A stretch of DNA of 64,000 nucleotides from a virus. The notes under the pieces were generated by a model that saw nothing but the letters and a program-made list of their open reading frames with translations, did no database searches and had not been told where the DNA came from. Shown one piece after another: positions 2-11,145 of this stretch. The DNA lies in IMG/VR virus record IMGVR_UViG_3300029319_000002, positions 1-64,000 of that record. One strand, written 5' to 3'. Positions within the stretch are counted from its first letter, which is position 1, and each line of letters begins with the position of its first letter. The position numbers and the translations under genes are program-made.

Positions 2-289
2 GGTATTGCGTTTAGTAATAAGAGGTGGTTGCATTTCTTTATGCTCTTTGTTCCTGTTATGGGTCTTTGGACAAGTTCCATCGGTATTATTGGTCTTGCT
101 CTCAACCTTCGTGCTTATGACTTTGTATCCCAAGAACTCAGAGCAGCAGAAGATCCAGAGTTCGAGACCTTCTACACGAAGAACATTCTCTTGAATGAGG
201 GTCTTCGTAATTGGATGGCAACTGTTGATCAACCACATGAAAACTTTGTGTTCCCTGAGGAAGTTCTTCCTAGAGGTAATGCACTGTGA
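2..289 (+). CDS. psbD: Photosystem II D2 protein, 3' part (gene starts before the window)
   Basis: Frame from nt 2 reads [23 protein letters not shown]...[31 protein letters not shown]...[12 protein letters not shown], the D2 C-terminus. Confidence 0.99.
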
Positions 290-9636: not shown

Positions 9637-9894
9637 ATGGGAAGTTTTTCAGTATTATTTCCAGATTGTGACCCTTCGCAAGCAGATGACACTAGTTTAC
9701 CAACTAATGCATATTTGGTCGAATATATTCAAGGTGAAACTTCACATTACGATATCGTGATGTCCAGTAAAAAAGTAGATATATTTGACCATTACTATGA
9801 TAAGTATAGAAAAGATCTTTTGAATATCACTCAAACAGAGGGTAGGATTCGTCCTAACCTTTATGGAGAGAGCAAAAAGAAAAAGGGAAAGTGA
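9637..9894 (+). CDS. Hypothetical protein
   Basis: Start refined to ATG 9637, directly after the previous stop. Confidence 0.7.
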   Translation: MGSFSVLFPDCDPSQADDTSLPTNAYLVEYIQGETSHYDIVMSSKKVDIFDHYYDKYRKDLLNITQTEGRIRPNLYGESKKKKGK

Positions 9895-9955
9895 TTTCCC
9901 AAAAAGGGGGAAAAAAATTCCCCAAAATTTTTGCTCAAAAAGGTCGATTAAAAAT

Positions 9956-9971
9956 TGTATTATATAATACA
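9956..9971. promoter_or_regulatory. Candidate NtcA box
   Basis: Perfect 16-bp palindrome TGTATTATATAATACA = TGTA-N8-TACA; contains TATAAT at 9963-9968. Confidence 0.6.
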
Positions 9972-9978
9972 CTAATAC

Positions 9979-10007
9979 TTGACTAAATAAGACAGATGGT
10001 CTAATAT
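9979..10007 (+). promoter_or_regulatory. Sigma70-type promoter with overlapping late motif
   Basis: TTGACT-17 bp-TAATAT; CTAAATA at 9983-9989; predicted start about 10014, just before riboswitch P1. Confidence 0.6.
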
Positions 10008-10015
10008 AGACCTAT

Positions 10016-10246
10016 CGTTCATCCAATGCTATCACTCTTATTGGCATTGACCTTAGCCAACCACGATCCGTCACCCTACGGGTGGCATATGACTTGTGAA
10101 AGGTTCTTACAAAGACGATTAGAGATCCAGGCAGATCCAAACCTTGACTTTAGGTCGAAGTTGAATCTAATAAGGTATCTAAAATCAAAAGTAGAAGGTG
10201 AATGTAAAGGAGTGTATACATAGGACGCAAGTAAGTCGCGGAACGG
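10016..10246 (+). ncRNA. Glutamine-II (Downstream-peptide) riboswitch-like unit 1, with an ORF inside the P2 loop
   Basis: CGTTCATCC ... GGACGCA-AGTAAGTCGC-GGAACGG; P1 CGTTC/GAACG and the CGCA junction match the motif. Confidence 0.65.
10026..10223 (+). CDS. Small two-Cys protein nested in riboswitch unit 1
   Basis: Hydrophobic N-terminus; MTC...I...LD...KL.LI...K...EC. Confidence 0.75.
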   Translation: MLSLLLALTLANHDPSPYGWHMTCERFLQRRLEIQADPNLDFRSKLNLIRYLKSKVEGECKGVYT

Positions 10247-10248
10247 AG

Positions 10249-10461
10249 CGTTCATCCCATGTTTGAATTACTCTTATATTCAACACTTAGTTGTACTCAA
10301 GCCGATGCTATTATGTTTCGGATTACTACAAATAAGCATTTAGATGATGAACTCAAACTTGAGTTAATTGAGACCGTAAAGGACTCAGCACCAGAATGTG
10401 ATTATTACTGGGACGCAAACGACTGAAGGAACGGGGCCTAAAAATCCAACTACTTCAGGAG
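10249..10461 (+). ncRNA. Glutamine-II riboswitch-like unit 2, with a pseudoknot over the RBS of the DUF4278 gene
   Basis: CGTTCATCCC ... GGGACGCAAACGACTGAAGGAACGGGG; CTGAAG (10423-28) is complementary to CTTCAG (10453-58), which overlaps SD GGAG. Confidence 0.78.
10259..10426 (+). CDS. 55-aa two-Cys protein nested in riboswitch unit 2, paralog of 10026 (not in ORF track)
   Basis: MFELLLYSTLSCTQADAIMFRITTNKHLDDELKLELIETVKDSAPECDYYWDAND. Confidence 0.75.
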   Translation: MFELLLYSTLSCTQADAIMFRITTNKHLDDELKLELIETVKDSAPECDYYWDAND

Positions 10462-10468
10462 TAAACAA

Positions 10469-10636
10469 ATGAACACACTTACTATCATCAAAAAGCAGAT
10501 TGAAAAGCAATCTGCAATTCACGATGCACAAATTTCTCACACTGCCTATCGTGGTGTTAAGTATAATGTAAACTGTGCAGAGCAACAGGATCTTCATGGA
10601 ACCTATTGCTATCGTGGTCGCACCTATACTAAGTGA
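10469..10636 (+). CDS. DUF4278-family peptide, 55 aa (not in ORF track)
   Basis: Two YRG motifs (AYRGVKY, CYRGRTY); CAGGAG SD; directly downstream of the riboswitch. Confidence 0.85.
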   Translation: MNTLTIIKKQIEKQSAIHDAQISHTAYRGVKYNVNCAEQQDLHGTYCYRGRTYTK

Positions 10637-10641
10637 TCACA

Positions 10642-10737
10642 ATGGAAGCATTACAAATAGTCGGACTCACGTCTCTAGGTTGTGCAGCATTTATTGGATT
10701 ACTTTACGGTGAACTAATTCTCCTCAATAAAGTCTAG
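10642..10737 (+). CDS. 31-aa single-TM microprotein (not in ORF track)
   Basis: MEALQIVGLTSLGCAAFIGLLYGELILLNKV. Confidence 0.6.
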   Translation: MEALQIVGLTSLGCAAFIGLLYGELILLNKV

Positions 10738-10745
10738 GAGGACAA

Positions 10746-10904
10746 ATGCTGAAGATCAAAATTGAATATGATCTTCCAGTATATGATCCAGAAAAACACG
10801 ATCCGAATAAAACTTTTGCGTTTTTAACTTATCGTGGTGTACATTATGCTAAGTGGGTTTATTTAAAACCTCTTAGCAAGAAAAACTGGAAAATAAGTAA
10901 TTAA
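10746..10904 (+). CDS. 52-aa YRGV-motif peptide, DUF4278-like (not in ORF track)
   Basis: AGGAGG SD; FLTYRGVHYAK. Confidence 0.75.
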   Translation: MLKIKIEYDLPVYDPEKHDPNKTFAFLTYRGVHYAKWVYLKPLSKKNWKISN

Positions 10905-10940
10905 GAGGGTCTTGACGACCCTCTTTTTTATTGCTATAAT
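10903..10940 (+). terminator. Terminator with the -35 of the next promoter in its loop
   Basis: AAGAGGGTC-TTGAC-GACCCTCTT-TTTT; TTGACG(10912)-17 bp-TATAAT(10935). Confidence 0.85.
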
Positions 10941-10962: not shown

Positions 10963-11145
10963 ATGTACGAAGAACTTAATTGTTTTGAGGAAGCACTCAA
11001 GCATTTTGGCACAAGAGTTGAAGTCATTTGTGCTCTAGAGTTATCAAACCGCATTTCTTCTGAAGATGCTTATAAGATGATTAAAGATGAAATGAAAGAA
11101 GTAAAGAAATGTCGTAAGCAATTTAAAAACGAAAAAGACTGCTGA
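10963..11145 (+). CDS. Hypothetical protein
   Basis: First ORF after the promoter. Confidence 0.7.
   Translation: MYEELNCFEEALKHFGTRVEVICALELSNRISSEDAYKMIKDEMKEVKKCRKQFKNEKDC

Follow-up and report, generated by a model that had tools for sequence, protein, structure and literature searches.

A putative glutamine riboswitch with nested modules and genes in both hairpin loops in a cyanomyovirus gene cassette

The window analyzed here, 64,000 nucleotides of DNA corresponding to positions 1 to 64,000 of the IMG/VR virus record IMGVR_UViG_3300029319_000002, is part of a complete 196-kb cyanomyovirus record. It carries a cassette (9956-10931) in which a promoter is followed by a leader RNA with two embedded open reading frames (ORF1 and ORF2), by ORFs for further short peptides and by a terminator. 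Judged by its sequence, the leader is a conserved regulatory RNA homologous to glutamine riboswitches. It is best described as one glutamine type-I (glnA-type) three-way junction whose helix P3 encloses a permuted second module, and this is put forward as the full explanation with a probability of about 0.7. New relative to known systems are the nesting of the two modules with a shared P3, the presence of genes in both hairpin loops, and the wide distribution of an element that had nevertheless gone undetected.

The cassette is homologous to gp196-gp197-gp198 of Syn9, with BLAST matches in 427 phage records. Its 42-nt central junction occurs in one copy per record in 424 phage records, nearly all of them Synechococcus and Prochlorococcus myoviruses. 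In an alignment of six divergent phages the RNA-like blocks are 100% identical, and the intervening ORFs differ mainly at third codon positions. The genomic neighborhood of the cassette differs among phages: it can follow nrdB, petE or an HNH endonuclease gene.

An initial annotation, made from the letters of the window, had read the leader as two tandem glutamine-II riboswitches. Every sequence element listed in it was found in place and is conserved among the relatives aligned, to a degree far above chance. This includes the two copies of CGTTCATCC (10016-10024 and 10249-10257), of GGACGCA (10223-10229 and 10411-10417) and of GGAACGG (10240-10246 and 10428-10434). Homology to glutamine riboswitches was borne out by the matches of compact relatives to the Rfam family RF01739 (type I). 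The tandem arrangement and the class assignment were not supported: P3 covaries between the first of the two units (AGUCG) and the second (CGACU), and it is RF01739, not RF01704 (glutamine-II), that passes its cut-off on relatives lacking the ORFs, in one alignment across both units.

Proposed fold of the leader RNA

The elements of the leader are listed below; MFE denotes minimum free energy and SD the Shine-Dalgarno sequence.

10016-10020, + strand: outer P1, 5' strand CGUUC, invariant; partner GAACG at 10429-10433
10022-10028, + strand: P2, 5' strand UCC-A-AUG, which contains the start codon of ORF1; partner CAU-A-GGA at 10219-10225
10026-10223, + strand: ORF1, 65 amino acids, gp196-like (phrog_6471), within the P2 loop; its stop codon ends in the G that pairs in P2
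10219-10225, + strand: P2, 3' strand CAU-A-GGA over the ORF1 stop codon UAG (10221-10223); covariation
10223-10248, + strand: GGACGCAAGTAAGTCGCGGAACGGAG, between the end of ORF1 and the second CGTTCATCC
10226-10233, + strand: J2/3 CGCAAGUA, with the CGC ligand-site strand and the E-loop half AAGUA; invariant; RF01739 consensus aCGGAAGUA
10234-10238, + strand: P3, 5' strand AGUCG, pairing with CGACU (10420-10424) across ORF2
10240-10253, + strand: inner helix, GGAACGG (GAACG 10241-10245, linchpin G 10246), linker AG and CGUUC (10249-10253); RNAalifold, MFE
10255-10259, + strand: inner hairpin, 5' strand UCCCA, extending into the ORF2 start codon; partner UGGGA at 10409-10413
10259-10426, + strand: ORF2, 55 amino acids, gp197-like (phrog_504), in the inner hairpin loop; PHROG, codon-position diversity
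10410-10434, + strand: GGGACGCAAACGACTGAAGGAACGG, at and after the end of ORF2
10413-10424, + strand: inner J2/3 ACGCAAA and P3 3' strand CGACU (10420-10424); invariance, covariation
10423-10428, + strand: CUGAAG, the last 2 nt of P3 and J3/1 GAAG (E-loop half); alternative partner of CUUCAG (10453-10458)
10429-10434, + strand: outer P1, 3' strand GAACG with the linchpin G; RF01739 alignments, RNAalifold, MFE
10453-10461, + strand: CTTCAGGAG, comprising CUUCAG (10453-10458) over the SD AGGAG (10457-10461) of ORF3; covariation, MFE

The two CGUUC strands are identical, as are the two GAACG strands, so that two folds are possible: a tandem one, in which first pairs with first and second with second, or a nested one. 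Outer P1 and the inner helix never vary and each of their strands exists in a second copy; the pairing of outer P1 was chosen by the RF01739 alignments, RNAalifold and the MFE, that of the inner helix by RNAalifold and the MFE.

Helix P3 joins the two units. In the 5-bp class all five positions are paired in 139/139 unique sequences, and seven helix variants occur (AGUCG:CGACU, AAUCG:CGAUU, AGACU:AGUCU, AAUCU:AGAUU, AUUCG:CGAAU, AGUCA:UGACU and one G.U form); in the rare variant of AGACU with AGUCU (L142-146) both strands have changed together. A class with a longer P3, comprising 85 sequences, has 6/8 positions paired with covariation. In members of this class (e.g. L162, L264) a C opposite A at position 3 and an A opposite C at position 6 are mostly conserved. 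One row of Weinberg's 2010 glnA alignment holds a further compensatory P3 variant. The two halves of the type-I E-loop are likewise split across the units, AAGUA (10230-10233) in J2/3 and GAAGG (10425-10429) in J3/1. Both align to the RF01739 consensus, with G replaced by A in about 30% of the relatives.

Outer P1, P2, the inner GAACG:CGUUC helix and the inner hairpin were recovered de novo by RNAalifold from 40 compact sequences. In the nested structure 96.4% of cells are paired, compared with 87.1% in shuffles and 32-57% in slid controls, and its covariation score of 0.259 (0.086 in shuffles) was reached by 0/500 shuffles. Its folding energy is 2-3 kcal/mol better than that of the tandem fold. 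It is the MFE structure of the window leader minus the ORF interiors; a leader spliced in this way is 87% identical to that of L030, a related viral contig and the best of the compact relatives that match RF01739. The same contig holds a PhotoRC-II RNA (RF01717, 57 bits) at L030:1021-1116.

P2 is 100% paired in the 40 compact relatives, with four pair types. Across ORF1, pair 1 is C:G in 35/35 sequences, and pair 2 is either C:G (21) or U:A (14), again paired in 35/35; AUG:CAU is paired in 26-28 of the 35 ORF1-bearing sequences. Across ORF2, pairs 1-4 of the inner hairpin are formed in 108, 108, 106 and 93 of 108 unique sequences, and pair 3 is C:G in 85, U:A in 13 and U:G in 8 of them. In compact forms the inner hairpin is 99.5% paired, with four covarying pairs.

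The inner module reads GGAACGG, a linker of 2-3 nt, CGUUCAU, a hairpin and GGACGCA(A/C)A. On the evidence of this order, it is a circular permutation of the junction in which P1 is closed by a tight loop and P3 is shared with the outer junction. In the crystal structure of the type-II riboswitch, glutamine is contacted by nucleotides C1, G2, C17-G18-C19 and C39-G41 (PMC6698751). CGUUC, CGC and GGAACGG, which contain the type-II ligand-site nucleotides, are present twice and invariant, and every contact nucleotide is kept in the inner module. The linchpin pair is C:G, the type-II form (structure in PMC6698751).

Rfam searches at the gathering cut-off and at E<=10 returned no glutamine family in the window, and none in the whole phage genome or in five isolate loci; the window reached neither the RF01739 cut-off of 35 bits nor the RF01704 cut-off of 33 bits. 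A 19-bit RF01739 match at 127.5 kb of the phage genome was discarded, being only 19 nt long. Rfam is silent on the window because ORF1 fills the P2 loop and ORF2 fills the inner hairpin loop. Five loci in which both loops are short score 43.6, 42.9, 40.3, 38.6 and 38.4 bits on RF01739. Each of these matches is a single alignment from the first CGUUC to the second GAACG, spanning both units, and takes the stretch between AAGUAAGU and ACUGAAGG as a P3 insertion. On RF01704, compact single units score 20.8-31.1 bits, with one at 34.0. The type-II P2 helix with its short GGAACGG loop and A33:G42 transition was not found in the window: the first GGAACGG has no flanking helix, and the second is flanked by CUGAAG:CUUCAG with a loop of at least 24 nt and no AU before GGAACGG.

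A search of genome contigs with the pattern GGACGCAANNNNCTGAAGGAACG was too strict (10 matches, mostly chance) and gave the first compact relative, the phage-like contig L009. It carries the same cassette with a first hairpin of CCC-UUCG-GGG in place of the ORF of about 200 nt. A scan of IMG/VR with junction and variant patterns yielded 269 unique elements. The first loop is short and the second ORF-sized in 113; both loops are ORF-sized, as in the window, in 66; both are short in 43; and the first is ORF-sized and the second short in 24. ORF-bearing forms are thus the majority (203/246 complete unique elements), and they are present in isolates from many genera. All four occupancy states occur inside single P3 sequence classes, and therefore loop occupancy has changed repeatedly.

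Genes and promoter of the cassette

That the nested ORFs are real genes is supported by their codon-position diversity, which is highest at third positions (0.23/0.18/0.46 at positions 1/2/3 in ORF1 and 0.35/0.15/0.47 in the 55-amino-acid class of ORF2), and by their membership in PHROG families; 77 homologues of ORF2 were found. In other phages the P2 loop measures 16-51 nt and the inner hairpin loop 16-31 nt. How the reading frames fit the stems was determined on sequences collected with the junction pattern. The start of ORF1 lies 2-10 nt after CGUUCAUC(C/U), and the ORF1 stop codon ends on the P2-pairing base, being UAG where 10024 is C and UAA or UGA where it is U (35/35 sequences). ORF2 starts directly after CGUUCAUCC(C/U). 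Its C-terminus, WDAND-stop, is encoded by GGGACGCAAACGACUGA, with the stop inside CUGAAG, so that the aptamer core and the P3 3' strand set the sequence of its tail. Variants of P3 change this ending to WDAQV.

A hydrophobic N-terminus and two Cys spaced by about 36 residues are common to both nested proteins. Their comparison (blastp E 0.014; hhalign P 4e-4, probability 34%) is suggestive of distant paralogy. A search for their function gave no Pfam match, PHROG families of unknown function and virus-only protein atlas clusters. Elsewhere the loops host several divergent small-protein families beyond gp196 and gp197 (L036, L089, L095, L104; L027, L062, L076; L046, L056, L068). One of the loop-hosted families has a clear signal-peptide-like N-terminus (MKFLLPLLLLTSPTYAGE...), and in one hp1 family the frame continues across GGACGCAAG to a UAA within AAGUAAGU, giving the ending ...GRK-stop.

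The remaining features of the cassette are as follows.

9957-9970, no strand: NtcA-type box GTA-N8-TAC, within TGTA-N8-TACA (9956-9971); 8 nt before the -35 hexamer, center about -50.5
9979-10007, + strand: early sigma-70-type promoter TTGACT-17-TAATAT, 9/12 matches; predicted start about 10013-10015
9998-10012, no strand: dyad GGTCTA-ATA-TAGACC around the -10 hexamer; sequence
10469-10636, + strand: ORF3, 55 amino acids, gp198-like (phrog_545), two YRG motifs, DUF4278-like; Pfam PF14105 18.9 bits
10642-10737, + strand: hydrophobic ORF of 31 amino acids, alternative GTG start at 10633; conserved, with a variation pattern consistent with coding
10746-10904, + strand: ORF5, 52 amino acids (phrog_6192), one TYRGVHY motif; PHROG, motif
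10903-10931, + strand: intrinsic terminator, 9-bp stem then a T run; the loop holds the -35 of the next promoter

Downstream of the leader, the SD AGGAG, the 55-amino-acid ORF with two YRG motifs, the second YRGV ORF and the terminator (10903-10925 without the end of the T run) are all present as first described. The designation of the peptides as DUF4278 proteins stood in part. ORFs at the position of ORF3 in other phages are plain N-terminal TYRG peptides that pass Pfam with 26-31.5 bits on PF14105, whereas ORF3 and ORF5 fall below the cut-off (25.3). ORF5 scores 13.3 bits against DUF4278 (E 0.11), the TYRGVHY motif being the only common feature. The 31-amino-acid ORF gave no match in family searches, and no solved relative of ORF3 was found in the PDB. 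DUF4278 is the signature of IF17 and of the IF17-like picocyanobacterial peptides; for the latter, action on glutamine synthetase is putative, and the Prochlorococcus proteins are without the region known for glutamine synthetase interaction (PMC6212724). The terminator hairpin (AAGAGGGTCTTGACGACCCTCTT) carries in its loop TTGACG, the -35 hexamer of the next promoter, whose -10 TATAAT lies at 10935-10940 (11/12 matches), before a DUF7219 gene (10963-11145); terminator and promoter are fused.

The TGTA-N8-TACA palindrome and the TTGACT-17-TAATAT promoter were both found as annotated, with the -10 ending 8 nt before 10016 and the predicted start 1-3 nt 5' of CGTTCATCC. A promoter of the form TTGACN-16..18-TAnnnT, with 7-9 nt between its -10 and CGTTCA, is found in 89 of 118 unique IMG/VR upstream regions; an exact GTA-N8-TAC is found in 68 of the 118, compared with 0.037 expected per 110 nt. 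Where the -35 is in place (89 regions), a perfect box lies at most 11 nt upstream in 51 and a box with 5/6 positions in 10; the frequencies in shuffled controls were 0.7% and 6.3%, respectively. Conservation of the palindrome, which had been suggested as a check, holds in 166/239 unique cassettes (69%) with an exact GTA-N8-TAC. In this wider set the box is exact in 38/41 fully compact elements, and it is therefore tied to the cassette as such, independently of the nested genes. By itself GTA-N8-TAC is unremarkable, with 22 occurrences in the window and 11.3 expected.

The box in relatives takes fixed offsets: 8 nt before TTGAC (about -50.5), 2-3 nt before it (about -45), or over the -10 and the transcription start site (TSS). 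The last is the repressing position reported for a Prochlorococcus IF17-like gene (PMC6212724). NtcA sites in cyanomyovirus genomes have already been reported in general (PMC3037559). A canonical NtcA-activated promoter, with the -10 placed 22 nt after the box, fits nowhere in the window.

The dyad on the -10 hexamer recurs in most related promoters as GGTCTATAATAGACC and resembles the promoter-early stem-loop cassettes of T4-type phages; such dyad cassettes may account for the varied genomic positions of the riboswitch cassette. Upstream of the box (9885-9950) lies an A/T-rich element that recurs in about 12% of related loci, among them L026, L027, L043, L061, L093 and L116. It reads AAGTGATTTCC..GGGGAAAAAAATTCCCC-AAAATTTTTG-(A)TCTGTAAGG-TTTT and contains a weak terminator-like hairpin (9906-9923).

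Proposed regulation and alternative explanations

The strands CU(G/A)AAG (10423-10428) and (C/U)UU(C/U)AG (10453-10458) covary: an A in the first strand is matched by U in 35/35 sequences, a G by C in 58 and by U in 25, and no mismatch occurs in 118. The helix CUGAAG:CUUCAG forms in the MFE structure whenever the expression platform is included. It had been annotated as a pseudoknot covering the SD; the helix over the SD is present and covaries, and in the nested fold it is not a pseudoknot. Since it overlaps P3 and the E-loop strand, it is more likely an alternative helix that sequesters the SD. Type-I and type-II glutamine riboswitches of the hosts work as ON switches in which glutamine binding is believed to expose the ribosome binding site (PMC6212724, PMC6698751), and CUGAAG:CUUCAG is therefore read as an OFF-state SD mask, although a role like that of the type-II P2 may be the alternative.

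In the proposed mechanism the promoter would start the mRNA 1-3 nt before the structured leader, and NtcA with 2-oxoglutarate may add transcriptional control, of either sign, at the candidate box. At low glutamine CUGAAG would pair with CUUCAG and mask the SD of the DUF4278-like YRG gene; the leader would be unfolded and the start sites of both nested genes accessible. At high glutamine P1, P3 and the E-loop would form, the SD of ORF3 would be released (ON switch), and the start codons of the nested genes would be buried, giving opposite outputs from one sensor. With the transcript starting 1-3 nt before P1 and the nested start codons lying in stems, the folded aptamer should block initiation on them; conversely, ribosomes on the nested genes would prevent folding of the aptamer. 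The YRG peptides, being IF17-like, may act on host glutamine synthetase. That glutamine turns the nested genes off and the YRG gene on, with two pockets at the ends of P3 acting cooperatively, is a tentative proposal and rather doubtful as a whole.

Two side observations touch the expression platform. GUUCAU (10017-10022) in the first aptamer strand is complementary to AUGAAC (10469-10474), with which ORF3 begins. The two are paired in MFE folds, both for the window and for compact relatives, and the pairing fails where the peptide starts with MTT or MAQ; judged from these models it could be an extra OFF-state contact or a coincidence. Some relatives (L003:1020-1085, L004:1255-1320 and many IMG/VR loci) have an insertion of 25-30 nt between GGAACGG and the SD strand, in the order AAACGGAUC, a covarying GNRA-capped hairpin and GAGAAGGUU, which resembles J2/3-P3-J3/1 of another glutamine-type junction.

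Several points weigh against the nested type-I junction and the regulation built on it. The window itself has no Rfam match, and a covariance model from the 40 compact relatives cannot bridge the ORFs, its best match in the window being the junction alone (16.5 bits). With P1 and the inner helix invariant, the choice between the nested and the tandem fold rests on P3, the E-loop, the Rfam alignments and the folding energy. Closure of P1 over about 420 nt, in competition with translating ribosomes, is kinetically demanding. Translation of ORF2, which stops inside the anti-SD strand, could open the SD without glutamine, an alternative route by translational coupling to ORF3, and blur the logic. 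ORF3 reaches 18.9 bits (E 0.002) against PF14105, below the cut-off. The box center, placed near -50 in the initial annotation and confirmed at about -50.5, is neither the canonical activating position (-41.5) nor a clear repressing one, and the TTGACT -35 is intact. Glutamine sensing by the element is deduced from homology.

Two independent glutamine-II aptamers in tandem, each with its own pseudoknot (CGUUC1:GAACG1 and CGUUC2:GAACG2) and with CUGAAG:CUUCAG as P2 of the second, are an unlikely alternative. The identity of the strand copies makes this pairing chemically possible, GGAACGG is flanked by CUGAAG and CUUCAG much as in the type-II P2, single units come from below threshold up to the borderline of RF01704 (best 34.0 bits, cut-off 33), and the Weinberg 2010 alignment handles the second unit as a separate aptamer and reports 'tandem' glnA RNAs. 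P3, however, joins strands of both units with compensatory changes and, in a tandem fold, would cross each of the two pseudoknots. AAGUA and GAAGG, the E-loop halves, sit in different units, the RF01739 cut-off is passed only when the alignment spans both, and RNAalifold and the folding energy prefer the nested fold; moreover, the first unit is without a P2-like flanking helix and the type-II A33:G42 context is absent.

It is quite improbable that the ORF-bearing form is a disabled relic whose blocks are kept through coding, translation signals, or RNase or recombination sites of a mobile early-gene cassette. Such a relic would fit the missing Rfam match of the window, the difficulty of closing a stem of 4-7 bp over about 200 nt of translated RNA, the varied genomic places of the cassette in different phages, and a core that is partly coding (WDAND). 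Against it, the non-coding blocks (CGUUCAUC before ORF1, J2/3, the P3 5' strand, GGAACGG and the linker) are equally invariant in ORF-bearing and compact forms, compensatory changes in P2 and P3 are found within ORF-bearing sequences, and these forms predominate (203/246), with isolates of many genera among them. Very little weight is given to a fold that is real but senses a ligand other than glutamine, or that serves as a protein-binding or processing element. The ACGC of J2/3 in place of the type-I ACGG, the permuted inner module without an E-loop and the conserved C.A mismatches of the long P3 class speak for it. However, all type-II glutamine-contact nucleotides are present in both modules, ACGC together with GGAACGG preserves the linchpin pair in its type-II form, and validated glutamine riboswitches show the same association with DUF4278 genes.

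Relation to known systems

The nested junction shares with type I (glnA RNA, RF01739, including the gifB leader of Synechocystis) the predicted P1 CGUUC:GAACG, a variable P2, J2/3 ending in AAGUA, P3 and J3/1 GAAG. As in the gifB leader, the putative aptamer lies upstream of a DUF4278-like gene, a probable SD-masking strand adjoins its 3' side, which agrees with an ON switch, and an NtcA-type site is found at the promoter (PMC6212724). Unlike type I, the phage P3 holds a permuted second module, P2 and the inner hairpin hold genes, and the linchpin is C:G. RF01739 matches in 81 host-family genomes lie upstream of DUF4278 genes and consist of one junction each, 55-100 nt long, with CGUUG:CAACG as P1; the nested form was not seen among six host matches inspected.

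With glutamine-II (RF01704) of marine picocyanobacteria, a switch also used by the host of these phages, the leader has in common CGUUCA(c/u)CC, a hairpin, CGCA, GGAACGG, the C:G linchpin and short YRG/DUF4278 peptides downstream. It differs in that no P2 closes a 9-nt GGAACGG loop, the A33:G42 context is missing, scores are mostly below the cut-off and the flanking helix overlaps P3 and the E-loop strand. Like tandem aptamers (the glycine riboswitch; the tandem glnA RNAs of Weinberg 2010), the leader holds two copies of the predicted ligand site, which could steepen the response; unlike them, the copies are nested, have P3 in common and include one that is circularly permuted. A gene in the terminal loop of a fold that must close around it recalls the ORFs in peripheral loops of group I and group II introns; here, in contrast, the gene-bearing RNA is the leader of an mRNA and a putative sensor of a metabolite, its closing stems contain the start and stop codons, and the ligand core doubles as coding sequence for part of one ORF. 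The combination of GTA-N8-TAC, a putative glutamine aptamer and a DUF4278-like product parallels the NtcA and riboswitch control of host gifB and IF17-like genes (PMC6212724), with the differences that the phage box is centered at about -50.5 (elsewhere about -45 or over the -10 and TSS), the phage -35 is near consensus and extra genes are present.

In the survey of McCown two glutamine aptamers were found in cyanophages, and phages were concluded to use riboswitches rarely (PMC5473149). In the Weinberg 2010 alignment the second unit is aligned alone, with the end of the nested ORF in the flank. A literature search, in which Ames and Breaker 2011 was not covered, retrieved no report of phage DUF4278 genes under riboswitch control or of genes inside an aptamer.

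A total of 424 phage records carry the predicted sensor core, as against the two glutamine aptamers previously counted in cyanophages, and the nested modules with a common P3 revise the picture of the 'tandem glnA RNA'. Genes in the loops of a putative metabolite aptamer constitute an unusual overlap of coding and structural constraint and suggest reciprocal regulation from one switch; if the proposed structure is true, genes embedded in aptamer loops and partly co-encoded with the binding core would be an arrangement new to the literature, and a major group of marine phages would prove to use riboswitches commonly. Cyanomyoviruses appear to copy the host's NtcA and glutamine control of IF17-like peptides, and phage manipulation of host nitrogen assimilation becomes directly testable.

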